Of a DNA stretch of 11,417 nucleotides, positions 1-11,417 are shown in pieces. How positions within the stretch are numbered: position 1 is the first letter of the stretch; every line of letters starts with the position of its first letter. Source of the DNA: Eledone cirrhosa. Lineage: Eukaryota. The notes below the pieces were generated by a model. It did not search any database, had not been told where the DNA came from, and was given only the letters and a program-made list of their open reading frames with translations. The stretch spans positions 1 to 11,417 of the forward strand of contig CAXHJY010000124.1 in the NCBI GenBank assembly GCA_964016885.1, in the 5' to 3' direction. Both the position numbers and the translations under genes were made by a program.

Positions 1-1069
<1,069 letters not shown>

Positions 1070-1193
1070 TGAATATAGACATAGAATATTCGAAAATATT
1101 CTGTATGTTTATAATAAACATTTTGAAGACCTAATCGCTATAGAATAGAATACGTCACGTATTACAATTAGATTCTCGATAAAAGCAAGGGAA

Positions 1194-1236
1194 GTAATCT
1201 ACACGTTTCATTCTTGTTAGAAATCTTCAGGACTAC
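1194..1236 (-). ncRNA. Type I hammerhead ribozyme motif (first of 13 minus-strand copies, at 1194 + n x 310)
   Basis: Minus strand reads GUAGUC-CUGAAGA-U-UUCU-AACA-AGAA-U-GAAAC-GU-GUA^GAUUAC. Stem I is GUAGUC/GAUUAC, core boxes CUGANGA and GAAA are present, stem II is UUCU/AGAA, and the cleavage triplet is GUA (cut between 1200 and 1199). A perfect 16-bp helix (1172-1187/1245-1260) extends stem I. Confidence 0.88.
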
Positions 1237-4200
1237 ATATCCAGTGCTTTTATCGAGAATGACACAGCTAGAGACTTATAGAATACTTAGCTGTGTACAG
1301 GAACTGGTTTGAAAGAGCGGTTGCCGGTCCGGCAGAAATTAGAAATTGGAATAAATGCTCTGAAATAGCGATATATATGTGAATATAGACATAGAATATT
1401 CGAAAATATTCTGTATGTTTATAATAAACATTTTGAAGACCTAATCGCTATAGAATAGAATACGTCACGTATTACAATTAGATTCTCGATAAAAGCAAGG
1501 GAAGTAATCTACACGTTTCATTCTTGTTAGAAATCTTCAGGACTACATATCCAGTGCTTTTATCGAGAATGACACAGCTAGAGACTTATAGAATACTTAG
1601 CTGTGTACAGGAACTGGTTTGAAAGAGCGGTTGCCGGTCCGGCAGAAATTAGAAATTGGAATAAATGCTCTGAAATAGCGATATATATGTGAATATAGAC
1701 ATAGAATATTCGAAAATATTCTGTATGTTTATAATAAACATTTTGAAGACCTAATCGCTATAGAATAGAATACGTCACGTATTACAATTAGATTCTCGAT
1801 AAAAGCAAGGGAAGTAATCTACACGTTTCATTCTTGTTAGAAATCTTCAGGACTACATATCCAGTGCTTTTATCGAGAATGACACAGCTAGAGACTTATA
1901 GAATACTTAGCTCTGTACAGGAACTGGTTTGAAAGAGCGGTTGCCGGTCCGGCAGAAATTAGAAATTGGAATAAATGCTCTGAAATAGCGATATATATGT
2001 GAATATAGACATAGAATATTCGAAAATATTCTGTATGTTTATAATAAACATTTTGAAGACCTAATCGCTATAGAATAGAATACGTCACGTATTACAATTA
2101 GATTCTCGATAAAAGCAAGGGAAGTAATCTACACGTTTCATTCTTGTTAGAAATCTTCAGGACTACATATCCAGTGCTTTTATCGAGAATGACACAGCTA
2201 GAGACTTATAGAATACTTAGCTGTGTACAGGAACTGGTTTGAAAGAGCGGTTGCCGGTCCGGCAGAAATTAGAAATTGGAATAAATGCTCTGAAATAGCG
2301 ATATATATGTGAATATAGACATAGAATATTCGAAAATATTCTGTATGTTTATAATAAACATTTTGAAGACCTAATCGCTATAGAATAGAATACGTCACGT
2401 ATTACAATTAGATTCTCGATAAAAGCAAGGGAAGTAATCTACACGTTTCATTCTTGTTAGAAATCTTCAGGACTACATATCCAGTGCTTTTATCGAGAAT
2501 GACACAGCTAGAGACTTATAGAATACTTAGCTGTGTACAGGAACTGGTTTGAAAGAGCGGTTGCCGGTCCGGCAGAAATTAGAAATTGGAATAAATGCTC
2601 TGAAATAGCGATATATATGTGAATATAGACATAGAATATTCGAAAATATTCTGTATGTTTATAATAAACATTTTGAAGACCTAATCGCTATAGAATAGAA
2701 TACGTCACGTATTACAATTAGATTCTCGATAAAAGCAAGGGAAGTAATCTACACGTTTCATTCTTGTTAGAAATCTTCAGGACTACATATCCAGTGCTTT
2801 TATCGAGAATGACACAGCTAGAGACTTATAGAATACTTAGCTGTGTACAGGAACTGGTTTGAAAGAGCGGTTGCCGGTCCGGCAGAAATTAGAAATTGGA
2901 ATAAATGCTCTGAAATAGCGATATATATGTGAATATAGACATAGAATATTCGAAAATATTCTGTATGTTTATAATAAACATTTTGAAGACCTAATCGCTA
3001 TAGAATAGAATACGTCACGTATTACAATTAGATTCTCGATAAAAGCAAGGGAAGTAATCTACACGTTTCATTCTTGTTAGAAATCTTCAGGACTACATAT
3101 CCAGTGCTTTTATCGAGAATGACACAGCTAGAGACTTATAGAATACTTAGCTGTGTACAGGAACTGGTTTGAAAGAGCGGTTGCCGGTCCGGCAGAAATT
3201 AGAAATTGGAATAAATGCTCTGAAATAGCGATATATATGTGAATATAGACATAGAATATTCGAAAATATTCTGTATGTTTATAATAAACATTTTGAAGAC
3301 CTAATCGCTATAGAATAGAATACGTCACGTATTACAATTAGATTCTCGATAAAAGCAAGGGAAGTAATCTACACGTTTCATTCTTGTTAGAAATCTTCAG
3401 GACTACATATCCAGTGCTTTTATCGAGAATGACACAGCTAGAGACTTATAGAATACTTAGCTGTGTACAGGAACTGGTTTGAAAGAGCGGTTGCCGGTCC
3501 GGCAGAAATTAGAAATTGGAATAAATGCTCTGAAATAGCGATATATATGTGAATATAGACATAGAATATTCGAAAATATTCTGTATGTTTATAATAAACA
3601 TTTTGAAGACCTAATCGCTATAGAATAGAATACGTCACGTATTACAATTAGATTCTCGATAAAAGCAAGGGAAGTAATCTACACGTTTCATTCTTGTTAG
3701 AAATCTTCAGGACTACATATCCAGTGCTTTTATCGAGAATGACACAGCTAGAGACTTATAGAATACTTAGCTCTGTACAGGAACTGGTTTGAAAGAGCGG
3801 TTGCCGGTCCGGCAGAAATTAGAAATTGGAATAAATGCTCTGAAATAGCGATATATATGTGAATATAGACATAGAATATTCGAAAATATTCTGTATGTTT
3901 ATAATAAACATTTTGAAGACCTAATCGCTATAGAATAGAATACGTCACGTATTACAATTAGATTCTCGATAAAAGCAAGGGAAGTAATCTACACGTTTCA
4001 TTCTTGTTAGAAATCTTCAGGACTACATATCCAGTGCTTTTATCGAGAATGACACAGCTAGAGACTTATAGAATACTTAGCTGTGTACAGGAACTGGTTT
4101 GAAAGAGCGGTTGCCGGTCCGGCAGAAATTAGAAATTGGAATAAATGCTCTGAAATAGCGATATATATGTGAATATAGACATAGAATATTCGAAAATATT

Positions 4201-4913
4201 CTGTATGTTTATAATAAACATTTTGAAGACCTAATCGCTATAGAATAGAATACGTCACGTATTACAATTAGATTCTCGATAAAAGCAAGGGAAGTAATCT
4301 ACACGTTTCATTCTTGTTAGAAATCTTCAGGACTACATATCCAGTGCTTTTATCGAGAATGACACAGCTAGAGACTTATAGAATACTTAGCTGTGTACAG
4401 GAACTGGTTTGAAAGAGCGGTTGCCGGTCCGGCAGAAATTAGAAATTGGAATAAATGCTCTGAAATATCGATATATATGTGAATATAGACATAGAATATT
4501 CGAAAATATTCTGTATGTTTATAATAAACATTTTGAAGACCTAATCGCTATAGAATAGAATACGTCACGTATTACAATTAGATTCTCGATAAAAGCAAGG
4601 GAAGTAATCTACACGTTTCATTCTTGTTAGAAATCTTCAGGACTACATATCCAGTGCTTTTATCGAGAATGACACAGCTAGAGACTTATAGAATACTTAG
4701 CTGTGTACAGGAACTGGTTTGAAAGAGCGGTTGCCGGTCCGGCAGAAATTAGAAATTGGAATAAATGCTCTGAAATAGCGATATATATGTGAATATAGAC
4801 ATAGAATATTCGAAAATATTCTGTATGTTTATAATAAACATTTTGAAGACCTAATCGCTATAGAATAGAATACGTCACGTATTACAATTAGATTCTCGAT
4901 AAAAGCAAGGGAA

Positions 4914-4956
4914 GTAATCTACACGTTTCATTCTTGTTAGAAATCTTCAGGACTAC
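4914..4956 (-). ncRNA. Type I hammerhead ribozyme motif (13th and last minus-strand copy)
   Basis: Identical to 1194-1236. The intervening copies start at 1504, 1814, 2124, 2434, 2744, 3054, 3364, 3674, 3984, 4294 and 4604. Confidence 0.88.
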
Positions 4957-5216
4957 ATATCCAGTGCTTTTATCGAGAATGACACAGCTAGAGACTTATA
5001 GAATACTTAGCTGTGTACAGGAACTGGTTTGAAAGAGCGGTTGCCGGTCCGGCAGAAATTAGAAATTGGAATAAATGCTCTGAAATAGCGATATATATGT
5101 GAATATAGACATAGAATATTCGAAAATATTCTGTATGTTTATAATAAACATTTTGAAGACCTAATCGCTATAGAATAGAATACGTCACGTATTACAATTA
5201 GATTCTCGATAAAAGC

Positions 5217-5449
5217 ATTCTCGATAAAAGCACTGGATATGTAGTCCTGAAGATTTCTAACAAGAATGAAACGTGTAGATTACTTCCCTTGCTTTTATCG
5301 AGAATCTAATTGTAATACGTGACGTATTCTATTCTATAGCGATTAGGTCTTCAAAATGTTTATTATAAACATACAGAATATTTTCGAATATTCTATGTCT
5401 ATATTCACATATATATCGCTATTTCAGAGCATTTATTCCAATTTCTAAT
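5217..5449 (+). repeat. Inverted partial copy (233 bp) of the 310-bp unit
   Basis: 5217-5407 is the reverse complement of 1070-1260. 5408-5449 continues into the neighbouring unit sequence before (AT)n resumes. Confidence 0.97.
5241..5283 (+). ncRNA. Type I hammerhead ribozyme motif in the inverted copy
   Basis: GTAGTC 5241-5246, CTGAAGA 5247-5253, stem-loop II 5254-5267, GAAAC 5268-5272, GT, GTA 5275-5277 (cleavage after 5277), GATTAC 5278-5283. Confidence 0.88.
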
Positions 5450-6642
<1,193 letters not shown>

Positions 6643-6643
<1 letters not shown>

Positions 6644-8535
6644 CATCATCATCATCATCATCATCAACGTTTAACGTCCGTGTTCCACGCTTGCATGGGT
6701 TTGGACGGGGGTAGTCCCACTTGAGGCAAGAGTGATTGTCTTGCTCGCATAGGACTGTCTGGCAGGTTTTCTACAGTTGGATGCCCTTCCTAACACCAAC
6801 CACATTTACAGTGTGGGTCTGGGAGGTTTTTACCGTGTTGCCTACACGGCCACATTACAGCGTGGACTGTGTGTTTTTTTGTCGTGACACCTACACGATC
6901 TCATTTGTTTCGGCCTCGATGGCGCGGCACCAACATAACTTTACATAGAACGGGGTGGTGTGGATCGGGTGGGGGTGGGGGTGGTGGGACGGGGTGTATT
7001 TTGTTAGAGATGCCTACTGGCTGGAGTAGGTTTTACTATATATTTAGGTAAGGCGGGTCTTCTCTGTTACTGAGTACCGCCAAAGGTCTCGGTCCAGTGA
7101 CATTGTCTTGGAGAGGTGTAAGTGTGTGATGTCGGAGTTTATCAGCTCGTCCCAGGTTTTTCTAGGTCTGCCTATTCCGTGACTACCGTCTATCTTTATT
7201 GCCCTGCACTTTGTTATACAGCTATCGACTTTCATGCGCATCACGTGTCCATACCAACGTAGCCTTCTCTCGAGTAAACAACATCTGATCCCTCTTATCT
7301 CTAATTTATTCCTTAGTTCGTTTATGCTTTGCCGTTCACGTATATTACTGTTACACATCCAGCGGAGCATGCAAGCTTCGTTCCTCTCTAGTCTGCGTAT
7401 ATCCTCTGCACACAATGCCCAGGTCTCACTGCCATGCAGCATTGCTGCTCGTATGCAGGCATCGTACAACCTGCCTTTCATTTTTAGTGAGAACCCTTTA
7501 GCAGCTAATAGTGGTATAAGCTCTCTGAACTTTTTCCAACCAGTTCTGACTCTAGCTACAGTACTTTCAGAGCACCCTCCCCCACTGCTGATTTTATCGC
7601 CCAGGTAACGGAAGCTGTCCACTATTTCTATAGAACCCTCTGCGCAATTGAAAGAGCTAGTAGTTTGTGGGCACTTGCTGCTACTTATTGCACCAGAGCA
7701 CCGGCCACATGTAAAATCTATGTTCTTAGTTAGCTTACCTGTGATCCCACTACATCTTTTATGCACCCATACTTTGCATTTAGGACATAAAATGGAGTTT
7801 CTACCTACGCCTTTCCTACACACCGAGCACGACCATTTCCCAGAAGGGACCGCCGCCTTGTTTTCTTTCCTACAAACTAGTACTTTGGTCTTAGCCAGGT
7901 TAGTTTTAAGTCCTTTTGACTCTAGGCCGTGCTTCCATGTTTGGAATTTCTTCTCTAGCTCGGCCATTGATTCCGCTATGAGTGTCAGGTCGTCTGCGTA
8001 TAGGAGTTCCCATGGGCAGCCTGTCTTGAACTCCTCTGTTATAGCCTGAAGGGCAATAATAAATAGTAGTGGACTGAGAACAGAGCCCTGATGGACGCCG
8101 ACTTTTACGCTAAACTCTTCACTATATTCGTTGTTAATTCTAACCTTGCTGACTGTTTCTTTATACATGGCTTGTATAGCCCTCACAAGCCATTCGTCAA
8201 CGCCTAGTTTTCTAAGAGCCCACCAGATAATGGAGCGGGGGACTCTGTCGAAGGCTTTCTCCAAGTCGACAAAAGCTAAGTAGAGGGGTTTACCTTTAGC
8301 TAGGTACTTCTCCTGTAGTTGTCGTACTATGAAAAGAGCGTCTGTGGTACTTTTGCCTGACACAAACCCGAACTGCATTTCATCTAGGTCAATTCTCTCT
8401 CTGATTAGTTGCGCTATTACTCTTTCCGTGACCTTCATGACCTGGTCGATTAATTTAATGCCTCTATAGTTACTCCTATCTAGGGCGTCTCCTTTACCCT
8501 TATAACAGTTAACGATGATGCTGCTATGCCAGTCC
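6643..8535 (-). mobile_element. 5'-truncated RTE-clade non-LTR retrotransposon (RT + C-terminal domain + 3' UTR + (TGA)8 tail)
   Basis: RT ORF at 7044-8537, 3' UTR at 6667-7043, and (TCA)8 at 6643-6666 is the minus-strand (TGA)n tail. (AT)n lies on both sides. The C-terminal [11 protein letters not shown]...GRPRKTW motifs are typical of RTE. Confidence 0.93.
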
Positions 8536-8536
8536 A

Positions 8537-8537
<1 letters not shown>
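7044..8537 (-). CDS. LINE reverse transcriptase, N-terminally truncated (no APE endonuclease), with internal PHD finger; 497 aa from the junction ATG
   Basis: Motifs [51 protein letters not shown] (7989-8000), FRYLG. There is no stop until TAA at 7044-7046. The ORF-track extension to 8741 is microsatellite. Confidence 0.9.
7698..7829 (-). other. PHD-type (C4HC3) zinc finger coded inside the RT domain
   Basis: CSVC-x10-CPKC-x4-HKRC-x14-CGRC, lying between the KTKVL and FRYLG RT motifs. Confidence 0.85.
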
Positions 8538-8586
<49 letters not shown>

Positions 8587-8725
8587 CACATATATATACA
8601 CATATACATATATATATATACACATATATATACACATATATATATACATATATATACATACATATATATACATATATATACATATACATACATATATATA
8701 TACATATATATACATATATATATAC

Positions 8726-8797
<72 letters not shown>
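8536..8797. repeat. (AT)n/(AC) microsatellite separating the two LINE fragments
   Basis: Direct reading. Confidence 0.99.
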
Positions 8798-8801
<4 letters not shown>

Positions 8802-9268
8802 GCTTCTCCCTCAGAATGAAAGGCAGACTGTATGATGCGTGTATCCGAACAGCGATGTTGCATGGTAGTGAGACCTGGGCGCTGAAGGTGGAAGACTTAC
8901 GTAGATTAGAGAGAAACGAAGCCTGCATGCTCCAGTGGATGTGTACACGTAGTAATATACGCGAACGACAAAGCATAAATGAATTGAGAGAGAGACTGAG
9001 CATAAGAGGAATCAAATGCTGCGTGCAGGAGAGGCGGTTACGCTGGTATGGACATGTGATGCGTATGAAGGATGACAGCTGCATAAAAAGGTGCAGAGCA
9101 CTAGAAGTTGATGGAAACCGCGGAGTGGGGAGACCCAAGATGACTTGGGATGAGGTGATAAAAGCCGACCTTACCCAACTACACCTCTCAAAGTCAATGA
9201 CACACGACCGTGACTTCTGGCGTCACGCAGTAATACAGGGTACCCGACCTCCCATGGGTACATGCTGA
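8798..9268 (+). pseudogene. C-terminal fragment of RTE ORF (post-RT region)
   Basis: The frame is open from the truncation point to TGA at 9266-9268 and contains [19 protein letters not shown] and GRPKMTW. It lacks the RT catalytic core. Confidence 0.88.
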
Positions 9269-9571
9269 AGCATATAAACAATATGCCCCCCCCCCCCACC
9301 GCAAGGTGGTCGTGGAGGTGCCACGGCAAAAAAGCACCCAGCCCACACTGTAAAGTGGACGTGTAGGCGCCACGAAAAAGCACCCAGCACTCACTGTAAA
9401 TGAGGTTGGTGTTAGGAAGGGCATCCAGCTGTAGAAATCAAGCCAGATCAGTTCCTGTATGAGCAAGGCATGGTCAGCCGACCAGACACTGCCCACAACA
9501 GGACAACCCGTCTAACCCATGCTAGCGTGGAAGAACGGACGTAAAACGGTGATGATGATGATGATGATGAT
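8798..9571 (+). mobile_element. Heavily 5'-truncated RTE-clade LINE of a related subfamily (C-terminal coding part, 3' UTR, (TGA)7 tail)
   Basis: The translation [17 protein letters not shown]... aligns with the C-terminus of the minus-strand ORF. The 3' UTRs share motifs (GGTTGGTGTTAGGAAGGGCATCCA; ACCCATGC..GCGTGGAA..ACGGACGT). The tail is at 9550-9570. Confidence 0.93.
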
Positions 9572-9788
9572 ATAAGTATGTGTATTTTGTATTATCTAGT
9601 GATATACAGTAGGTTTACGAATAAACATTTTGAAAGCCTTCAACTATGAATTTGGTAGCTGATGACATAATGCCATCTAGCAGAAGCAAAGGTTGAGTAA
9701 CTGACAACGCCATTTCTGACTCAGGTCATTATCAAGACAGTGCTCCCTTACCATGCTCTTTGCTAGAACTCAATATAGGCAAAAATAT

Positions 9789-9849
9789 ATAGTTTTGACA
9801 CCTATGTACATGAGGCTAATCAGCCCATGTACACAGGTGTCAAAACTAT
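9789..9849. repeat. Near-perfect inverted repeat (27 bp paired, 4-nt loop)
   Basis: ATAGTTTTGACACCT-a-TGTACATG-a-GGCT [AATC] AGCC-CATGTACA-c-AGGTGTCAAAACTAT. Confidence 0.92.
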
Positions 9850-10087
9850 TTGCAGTATTAACATAAAGACTTCAATTTTATATGTTCTGGCTCTGGGGTT
9901 GATGCAGTACAAAGTGTTAAGAATTAAGAATTAGCCTGATCTGTGAGAACCTGTCCAACAATTACTAGCAGGGGAAAATGGGCATTAAATGCTGATACAA
10001 ATTAAAACACAAAATTGTCATTTAAATGGTAACAATACAATGTAAAAAGGACTCTTCAGTCATGTTGAAGGTGAGATAGCCTCTTTA

Positions 10088-10170
10088 GTGTTGATGCCAT
10101 AATAAGTGCACCCAGTACACTCTGCAAAGTGGTTGGTGTTAGGAAGCATCCAGCCATAGACATCATGCCA
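10088..10170 (+). mobile_element. Degraded SINE/RTE-3'-UTR-related fragment
   Basis: GCACCCAGTACACTCTGCAAAGTGGTTGGTGTTAGGAAGCATCCAGCCATAGA matches 9380-9435. A second partial copy (TGCACCCAGTA) lies at 10243-10253. Confidence 0.7.
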
Positions 10171-10270
10171 AAAAGATTAAAGAGGACCTTTCAGTTATGT
10201 GAAGAACAAGACAAATTCTTTAGAGCTGCTGTCACAATAAAATGCACCCAGTATATGGGATGATAGTTCA

Positions 10271-10395
10271 AGTGTAGGGGGTAGTCAGATGGGAGTGTAT
10301 GGGGTAGTTTGTGTGAGGAGGGAGTGTATGGGGTAGTTTGACTGAGAAGGGAGTGTAAAGAATAGTTTCTTTGAGGTGGGAGTGTAGGGTGTAGA
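10271..10395. repeat. Degenerate G-rich minisatellite with a period of about 29 bp
   Basis: GGGAGTGTATGGGGTAGTTTG is exact at 10291-10311 and 10320-10340. AGTGTA-containing degenerate copies lie on both sides. Confidence 0.75.
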
Positions 10396-10547
10396 GAGAG
10401 GTGACAGTTAATGAGCCACACAAACTGTTGTGAACATGGGACTCATTAATAATCTAATGACAACTTAATACAATGAGACTATCTAATGCTAAACAATTAT
10501 CTGTTGTTGTTTTGTATGCTGTGGTCATTATAATCACATTTGTCATT

Positions 10548-10635
10548 GTATCAACATCATCATCGAGACTATCATCCTCATTAGCAATAACATCGTTAAT
10601 CATCATCAACAACACCATCAACATCCTCATCAATA
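10548..10635. repeat. Degenerate (CAT/CAA)n low-complexity tract
   Basis: Repeated atc/aac triplets. Confidence 0.65.
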
Positions 10636-10693
10636 CAGTCACATGGCATGCTAGAAATAGCAGCCAAAACTAATCCTCCATCACAGACTTAAA

Positions 10694-10711
10694 TGATGGT
10701 AGTAGTAGTAT

Positions 10712-10752
<41 letters not shown>

Positions 10753-10799
10753 ATAGTAGTAGTAATAATAGTAATAATAATAGTAGTAGTAGTAGTAGT
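10694..10799. repeat. (AGT)n/(AAT)n microsatellite
   Basis: Direct reading. Confidence 0.97.
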
Positions 10800-10881
10800 G
10801 AGAGGTGTACTTAGATAAATACAATGACAAAAACAAAACCTCTTTGACAGCCATAAAACTTCTGACAAACATGATGAAATT

Positions 10882-10932
10882 GAGAGAGTGAGAGAGAAAG
10901 AGAGAGTGAGTGAGGGAGAAACAGAGAGAGAG
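10882..10932. repeat. Degenerate (GA)n tract; GA-rich sequence resumes after the SINE (11158-11207)
   Basis: Direct reading. Confidence 0.8.
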
Positions 10933-10946
10933 GGGGGATAAATAGT

Positions 10947-11140
10947 TGTTTCTACTTTTGACACAAGGCCAGCAATTACCCAGTACATTACTGGTACTTT
11001 ATTTTATCGACCCCGTAAGGATGAAAGGCAAAGTTAACCTCGGCGGGATTTGACCTCAGAATGGCAAGGGCAGTAACTCTATGCGTCAAAGCATGGCGTC
11101 CAACTCTCTACCGATACTGCCAATTCACCGCCCAATTCAC
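10947..11140 (-). mobile_element. tRNA-derived SINE with 17-bp target-site duplication
   Basis: The minus strand starts GGCGGTGAATTGGCAGTATCGGTAG (A-box-like) and has GGTCAAATCCC (B-box-like). It continues TTTGCCTTTCATCCTTACGGGGTCGATAAAATAAAAGTACCAG, which from memory resembles the Meta-type SINE central domain. GAGGGGGGATAAATAGT is identical at 10930-10946 and 11141-11157. Confidence 0.88.
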
Positions 11141-11417
11141 GAGGGGGGATAAATAGTGAGGGATAGATAGAGAGAGTCAGGGAGTGGGAGAGAAAAAGAG
11201 AGATTTGAGAACCGGGTGGGAAGAGAGGGAGAGCTACTTTGAGAAAAATAATTCCTCCAGAGATCACAGGTCAAAGAATATCTTGTATGGTGGCAGTGAT
11301 TGGGGTGGAGGTGGGGGGAGATATGGGAGAAGAGAGAGGAGGAGAAGAGGGAGAAGATGAAGGGGGAGCCCAGGAGAAATTGAAATTGAAATGATGTTTT
11401 TTGTTCTGGTATTGTTG

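Follow-up and report, generated by a model that had tools for sequence, protein, structure and literature searches.

A probable insertion of a young non-LTR retrozyme in Eledone cirrhosa, with a hammerhead predicted to fold better in neighbouring pairs and an array likely copied by Penelope-type reverse transcription

The tandem 310-nt repeats in the stretch of Eledone cirrhosa DNA analysed here (11,417 nt, GenBank assembly GCA_964016885.1, contig CAXHJY010000124.1, positions 1 to 11,417; hereafter the window) are probably an insertion of a young retrozyme. Its hammerhead ribozyme is predicted to be poor when alone and better as a double formed with a neighbour, and the array is likely a copy of released RNA made by a Penelope-type reverse transcriptase. 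Judged by sequence, the array is one insertion of an abundant, non-coding non-LTR retrozyme family with about 18,000 cores. The insertion and its target are composed of the following parts.

1..1070, no strand: (TA)n microsatellite, left target flank
1061..5217, minus strand: long arm, 13.4 head-to-tail 310-nt retrozyme units with 13 hammerheads, from repeat and core mapping
5216..5449, plus strand: short inverted arm, 0.75 unit, with the 14th hammerhead at 5241-5283, from core and arm-end mapping
5448..6643, no strand: (TA)n microsatellite, right target flank
1200..1509, minus strand: predicted 310-nt monomer, a candidate circular RNA bounded by two adjacent cuts, placed from core positions, with its circular fold computed

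The arms meet 5' to 5' at a junction inside the distal helix I sequence, and both run at their 3' ends into (TA)n, the long arm at end site 1 (unit position 131-139 past the cleavage site) and the short arm at end site 2 (unit position 165-172). The unit has a GC content of 34%, full copies differ at three variable positions in total, and no protein-coding frame of at least 80 aa was found inside the array. All 14 hammerhead cores of the window, 13 on the minus strand and one on the plus strand, are identical. Sequence characters of a non-LTR retrozyme were found, i.e. a non-coding tandem unit within 150-450 nt, low GC, a hammerhead in each unit and arrays of the family dispersed through the genome. 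In three of four assembled sequencing runs, a lone 340-nt contig represents one unit plus 30 bases, a product that a circle and a perfect tandem repeat would yield alike. Among the sequencing runs listed as containing the repeat, none is recorded as RNA.

Elsewhere, the window holds two LINE fragments unrelated to the array, which we take to be RTE-like. The first, at 7044-8537 on the minus strand, encodes a reverse transcriptase fragment with a PHD finger (Pfam), and the second, from a similar LINE, lies on the opposite strand at 8799-9268 (plus), beyond a (TA)n tract. A short inverted repeat at 9789-9849 with a weak miRNA-family match is possibly a small MITE-like hairpin.

The hammerhead itself was mapped in the two repeats nearest the left flank.

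1194-1236, minus strand: hammerhead core of the last repeat, predicted cleavage after 1200
1504-1546, minus strand: hammerhead core of the adjacent repeat, predicted cleavage after 1510
1511-1516, also 1201-1206 and every 310 nt, minus strand: helix III hexamer ACGUGU
1520..1533, minus strand: helix II with U10.1 (1533), U11.1 (1520), three more pairs and the 6-nt loop UAACAA
1482..1570, minus strand: extended hammerhead with 6-bp helix I, 3x1 internal loop, 3 pairs, 2x2 loop and 16-bp distal helix
1555-1570 paired with 1482-1497, minus strand: the two strands of the distal helix

The core reads GUAGUC / CUGAAGA / U-UUCU-AACA-AGAA-U / GAA / ACGUGU / A / GAUUAC. Two such type I cores lie within 1194-1546 on the minus strand, and the initial annotation is confirmed in its description of ACGUGU as the stretch from GAA to the cleavage base and of U/U as the pair closing helix II (10.1/11.1), the latter being present in all 14 cores. 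Its designation of the motif as minimal had to be given up, as the looped helix I covaries and the structure has the extended build of canonical type I hammerheads. We found the conserved elements CUGANGA / GAAA / UH, helices I to III with helix I open-ended, and a 6-bp helix I whose internal loop could be contacted by the loop of helix II, the tertiary contact itself being putative. The canonical G10.1-C11.1 pair is absent and is represented by U·U in the window and by A-U in 3,963 cores of the family. The motif does not match the description of minimal Penelope-like element (PLE) hammerheads (Cervera and de la Pena 2014), namely a long helix II (7-8 bp), a short helix I, an ill-defined loop 1 and an extra base between positions 9 and 10.1. 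The extended hammerhead has a predicted folding energy of -31.3 kcal/mol (z -7.1), and its proximal 6+3 helix I pairs covary across families. A genome pattern search returned 16,883 matches to related core patterns versus 308 for the reversed control, indicating that the motif is not due to chance. In Rfam, the best hit of the core was HH9 (15.3 bits, E 0.49), under the cut-off though the alignment fits; the scan of the whole window listed no hammerhead and only simple-repeat miRNA matches, and a genome search with Hammerhead_1 yielded a different family with a 7-nt helix III (30 loci taken).

The proposal that the hammerhead acts as a dimer rested on ACGUGU pairing with a second copy of itself. 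Formally, all 6 positions do pair. However, 4 of the 6 pairs are automatic for any 2-bp helix III, so that only the middle two are informative, and here these form a weak tandem GU/UG duplex (-0.8 kcal/mol). The family at large presents a clearer picture. A DNA search of the genome with the window's repeat gave at least 219 matches, the exact pattern with the window's loop II occurs in 8,449 cores genome-wide, and a pattern allowing loop II variants detected 18,009 cores, of which 17,945 have the helix III loop GC, 31 GU, 20 UC, 9 AC, 2 CC, 1 GG and 1 GA. Hence, the family norm is the perfect palindrome ACGCGU and the window's GU loop is a rare variant. The helix III is too short alone and its loop is self-complementary, perfectly so in the family norm and by weak wobble pairs in the window, which is the configuration of a dimer-acting hammerhead.

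The 31 GU cores comprise the 14 of the window, all 6 of a further insertion on C5 (L031) and 11 at single places, four of which are surrounded by GC copies. L031 represents an independent GU insertion, as its junction is unlike that of the window. Loops that cannot self-pair were seen as singles, as one spaced pair or scattered in one C14 region, but never in runs of adjacent copies. Counted by loci, GU fills 2 loci entirely and non-pairing loops fill 0, while sporadic copies number 11 for GU and 9 for AC; this whole-locus bias has the right direction for selection, but is too small for significance, may go back to one event and is suggestive only. Since GU, a C-to-U variant, is present in both arms of the window and in one other insertion, it likely passed through an RNA stage despite its weaker predicted duplex. 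Family haplotypes also alternate at position 7, position 10.1 and loop II, A10.1 alone being found in 3,963 cores. As a separate observation, the UC-loop variant recurs 19 times at irregular spacing at G000:C14:25.02-25.32 Mb, probably within a very large, locally amplified array.

Next, related families were compared. Among AC-NN-GU cores, those with a non-pairing loop amount to at most 552 of 16,883, a figure in which AA and CC are counted twice and from which 232 control matches have not been subtracted. For covariation, 17 distinct cores with a 14-nt helix II region were chosen from 30 distinct strings; junction-truncated, near-duplicate and indel copies were dropped, as were three strings whose loops cannot pair (UC in two, AC in one) and which occur in arrays as minority variants. 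The loop 3 pair is kept in all 17 aligned cores (UA in 10, GC in 4, AU in 2, GU in 1), at least three of these states being Watson-Crick. Helices I and II covary with double changes at 14 of 16 pairs, counts that overstate the number of independent events because the 17 cores represent few related families (the tool itself warns that kinship inflates scores). The helix III hexamers of related families are ACUAGU, ACAUGU or AGUACU, and in an older sister family (~70% identical, 4,458 pattern matches) the helix III regions are longer, with complementarity mostly reaching the centre. The palindromic loop is not universal, since purine-purine loops with the same short helix III occur in a more abundant group: among the first 100 of 38,593 AG-NN-CU cores, counted by eye, 17 are AGUACU and 83 have purine-purine loops, mostly at dispersed places. 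Three further observations concern this wider set. Tens of thousands of mostly dispersed cores genome-wide combine a 2-bp helix III and a purine-purine loop (AA, GA, AG) with a long helix II; other retrozyme-like families with 466-469-nt units and an ACUAGU helix III reside at L155-L156, L159 and L165 (G000:C1 5.74, 14.04 and 21.9 Mb); and one ACUAGU-type array mixes UA with non-pairing UC loops.

Folding of tandem pairs was assessed with an equilibrium nearest-neighbour model, tertiary contacts and co-transcriptional order lying outside it. The double hammerhead of a tandem pair is a nested structure in which the helix I strands are swapped. Predicted energies of the hexamer duplex are -0.8 kcal/mol for GU/GU, -5.6 for GU/GC and -7.5 for GC/GC. 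For natural tandem pairs with GC loops (L046, L166 and L167), the double hammerhead is the unconstrained minimum in 3 of 3 cases, the helix III duplex having a probability of 0.98-0.99. For the window's GU pair this probability is 0.001, i.e. the predicted ensemble lacks the duplex, and the double fold imposed by constraint (-99.8 kcal/mol) lies 6 kcal/mol above the minimum and 12.6 below two single folds. In all 4 pairs tested, the constrained double fold beats two constrained singles by 12.6-19.6 kcal/mol, and each motif folded singly lies at least ~9 kcal/mol above the predicted minimum. By its predicted pairing, the window's copy is therefore a weakened variant of the family hammerhead. 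For the family, the comparison and the folding models suggest that cleavage is likely enhanced in dimers.

These data also bear on the idea that single extended hammerheads do the cutting, contacts between loop I and loop II offsetting the strained helix III and the palindrome being inherited or secondary. The looped helix I extension required for this is present and covaries across families, and newt monomer cleavage requires exactly such an extension (PMC6155905). Moreover, local folding should come before strand swapping, and the single fold may be kinetically trapped, because transcription would complete the local 25-bp helix I ~230 nt ahead of its swap partner. Two insertions consist of the GU variant in spite of its weak duplex, and families with purine loops thrive as dispersed copies. 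Nevertheless, a free hairpin loop should drift, yet the AC-NN-GU families change only between self-pairing states. The energetic cost of the single folds and the poor performance of the nearest assayed analogues as monomers (PMC7229834) argue in the same direction, and we consider cutting by single hammerheads unlikely. Regarding the initial claim that the ribozyme needs adjacent repeats, a double-hammerhead fold between neighbours is likely, but "faster with" fits better than "needs", because newt monomers of the same extended build are reported to cleave.

It is possible, though we rather doubt it, that the window's GU array is a dead end, the variant having been excised once or twice by virtue of a GC-loop neighbour in its source array and all-GU arrays now cleaving poorly. 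The graded duplex energies and the occurrence of GU in only 2 whole loci would be accounted for. On the other hand, there are two independent insertions with different junctions (window and L031), of which one could be the other's daughter, and among active conformations the double fold is still favoured over singles. At the level of the family, such a dead end is compatible with the preferred explanation of a retrozyme acting better in neighbouring pairs.

The U/U pair at the base of helix II had been regarded as unusual, which it is not: U10.1 and U11.1 around a 12-nt insert are found in 44,383 cores genome-wide, and axolotl HHR_Amex2 provides a published precedent (PMC7229834). In its strong form, the initial annotation attributed the existence of the array to cleavage that increases with copy number, and reasoned that slowing by U/U may leave multimeric templates. 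Private variants recur at multi-unit spacing in some arrays (window copies 3 and 9; L044 copies 2 and 4), and multimeric RNAs are described in axolotl tissues (PMC7229834). However, the spacing of such repeats departs from strict periodicity (L042, L046), and the other arm of L044 lacks its variant, in keeping with duplications that arose once the element had inserted; across 38 loci, the periodicity of variants is ambiguous and gives no clear sign of multimeric templates. The A-U cores of the family (3,963) build equally long two-armed arrays, up to ~17 units in the loci sampled, so that U·U is not needed for arrays. Several loci hold only 1-2 hammerheads, and a monomer bottleneck would account for a rare variant being shared by every copy in the two arms. 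Furthermore, no type I retrozyme can release its unit without two cleavage sites, and dimer dependence therefore adds no reason for an array. We judge the strong form very unlikely; the ends of the arrays point to reverse transcription instead of cleavage by copy number, and the array is better explained by the element's copying than by a need for many ribozymes.

To define these ends, arms were mapped in 38 loci found by similarity to the window, in 22 stretches drawn from pattern lists in order of position and in 13 follow-up stretches. Every two-armed locus is divergent, joined 5' to 5', and none is convergent. Both ends were seen in 49 two-armed loci, of which 46 pair an end at ~131-139 with one at ~165-172, 6 of these 46 depending on follow-up stretches; in the other 3 one end lies elsewhere, and pairing of like with like was observed in 0 of 49. 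One-armed loci make up 14 of the 60 first stretches, some of them because the assembly has gaps, because other sequence separates the arms or because the second arm is very short. The arm ends pass into TA-rich sequence in 56/61 and 33/39 cases. In 12 of 12 two-armed loci chosen regardless of haplotype, both arms share the same position 7 / 10.1 haplotype, which argues for one RNA or one source. The insertions show an inverted, 5'-truncated arm, a tail at one end and a microsatellite target, the footprint of Penelope mobilisation. Thus, the arrays look like products of Penelope-type reverse transcription, with that enzyme as the likely agent. L1-style twin priming on one linear RNA was considered and rejected, since the 5' ends of the arms are scattered over the unit and do not lie beside the start site of the other arm. 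In one insertion (L204:2098-2371), ~270 nt of unrelated sequence separate the two arms, possibly captured from another template.

An ordinary DNA-level satellite carrying an inert hammerhead look-alike could account for the Rfam scores under the cut-off, and local amplification is real, as exemplified by the UC-loop variant on C14. Such a satellite is hardly reconcilable with dispersed loci, two fixed 3' ends, strict pairing of site 1 with site 2, (TA)n flanks, an invariant core and covarying helices, and we regard it as highly improbable.

The genome carries elements encoding a reverse transcriptase (RT) plus GIY-YIG with a Neptune-type cysteine linker. One RT plus GIY-YIG family has a hammerhead with U·U and AGUACU in its 3' repeat, two 3' ends and two-armed insertions. 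In that family, the Neptune-type candidate helper, 67 of 69 scored copies lack stop codons. At L171:1492-2107 (G000:C1 near 4.92 Mb), an arm of the sister retrozyme is joined 5' to 5' to the 3' end of this Neptune-type Penelope element, both ends lying in (TA)n; this is the one head-to-head chimera with the candidate helper among 30 sister-family loci. No chimera of the main family with a Penelope element was seen, the unit and the 3' end of the candidate helper share no significant sequence similarity, and no Penelope ORF continuous with the unit was present in 50 GIY-YIG loci (30 plus 20 extended) or in 30 sister-family loci. For the main family, this element is accordingly a candidate helper only, proposed from sequence. 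Separately, full-length Penelope ORFs were observed in tandem at ~4.2-kb spacing (G000:C4:322582050-322592379 and G000:C1:147233776-147243642), arranged minus-then-plus like the retrozyme arrays. This hints that the autonomous element, too, may be copied from a circular or multimeric template.

We propose the following cycle for the retrozyme. Read-through transcription of the minus strand would produce a multimer. Within it, as the folding predictions suggest and covariation supports, neighbours would exchange strands of helix I while their palindromic hexamers form a common helix III, so that both sites are cut and the 310-nt unit is freed. By analogy with coral, mussel and axolotl retrozymes, the unit would then be circularised, and with a single weak hammerhead the circle would survive. 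Finally, a Neptune-type Penelope enzyme, suggested by the footprint, would cut (TA)n and prime from both DNA ends at two fixed RNA sites ~30 nt apart, copying several unit lengths each way and leaving arms joined at their 5' ends. A more far-reaching reading, which we put forward tentatively and with slightly less than even confidence, is that the copies record this full cycle: a dimer-only hammerhead would cut multimers and spare the 310-nt circle, and a dimeric Neptune-type RT would roll round the circle from two fixed starts, each serving one DNA end, so that both multi-unit arms carry a single haplotype. Loop 3 would be kept self-complementary by selection acting at the RNA stage, so that only variants that keep the pair, such as the window's GU, could found new arrays. 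The value of the system lies in its use for testing, as one genome provides natural variation in loop 3 (GC, GU, UA, AU, purine-purine) and in helix II (U·U, A-U), fitness being readable from copy numbers, together with intact candidate helpers. It becomes testable whether dimer-dependent cleavage protects retrozyme circles and whether Penelope enzymes copy circles.

Our literature search, in which most subscription journals and bioRxiv supplements were outside reach, found no description of octopus or cephalopod retrozymes or of this 310-nt family. Earlier work on newt and axolotl retrozymes has reported the anatomy, the dimer mechanism and the U·U pair, and the dimer idea is in print (PMC4209133, PMC7229834). 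Since that idea is established for hammerheads of newt, axolotl and viroids, the finding as first written is not new. PMC4209133 describes metazoan type I hammerheads as usually combining a short helix III and its small palindromic loop with a dimeric fold, and also cites the idea that such an architecture may spare monomeric circles; the same helix III palindromes are remarked upon in PMC3088659. According to PMC7229834, axolotl monomers with a palindromic weak helix III or with U·U cleave to 6% and 22% in 1 h and dimers much better, while most invertebrate retrozymes show efficient monomer cleavage; newt monomers cleave given a looped helix I extension (PMC6155905). The window family resembles axolotl HHR_Amex1 and HHR_Amex2 and newt satellite 2 (PMC7229834, PMC6155905) in its type I fold and in units of ~300-350 nt, with weak monomers and efficient dimers in those systems and cleavage predicted here. 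HHR_Amex1 is like the window family in its helix III, composed of one pair and a palindromic tetraloop, and HHR_Amex2 is like the window in its U·U at the base of helix II. In contrast to these, the two weak features are combined in the window's motif, which occurs in two-armed insertions within (TA)n. Minimal PLE hammerheads (PMC4209133) have a long helix II, a short helix I and an ill-defined loop 1, whereas the window's motif is canonical, with 6 bp in helix I, 4 positions in helix II and a looped extension.

With EN+ Neptune-type PLEs, whose insertions are reported as inverted, tailed and (TA)n-biased (PMC8557442) and whose enzyme was seen to extend both strands in vitro, its two adjacent start sites on the RNA determining the genomic tail (PMC11167929), the insertions share the inverted 5'-truncated arm, the short end tail, the (TA)n bias and two RT start sites. 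They differ in that the 310-nt unit encodes no protein, the tail measures ~26-41 nt and the helper enzyme is putative. Retrozymes have been argued to derive from Penelope elements in a preprint (bioRxiv 10.64898/2026.07.22.740005) that also describes Xenopus retrozyme dimers, 1/9 of which cleaved in vitro, and a circular-template model has been put forward (PMC7761336). The family is like the metazoan non-LTR retrozymes of these reports and of PMC7229834 in its non-coding tandem unit, here of 310 nt and 34% GC, in its hammerhead per unit, in its dispersed arrays and in the presence of Penelope-like elements in the same genome, the family here being known from DNA alone. The metazoan retrozyme papers, in the text available to us, draw the Penelope link from co-occurrence and homology (the word "inverted" occurs 0 times in that of PMC7229834), whereas here it is drawn from the ends of the insertions.
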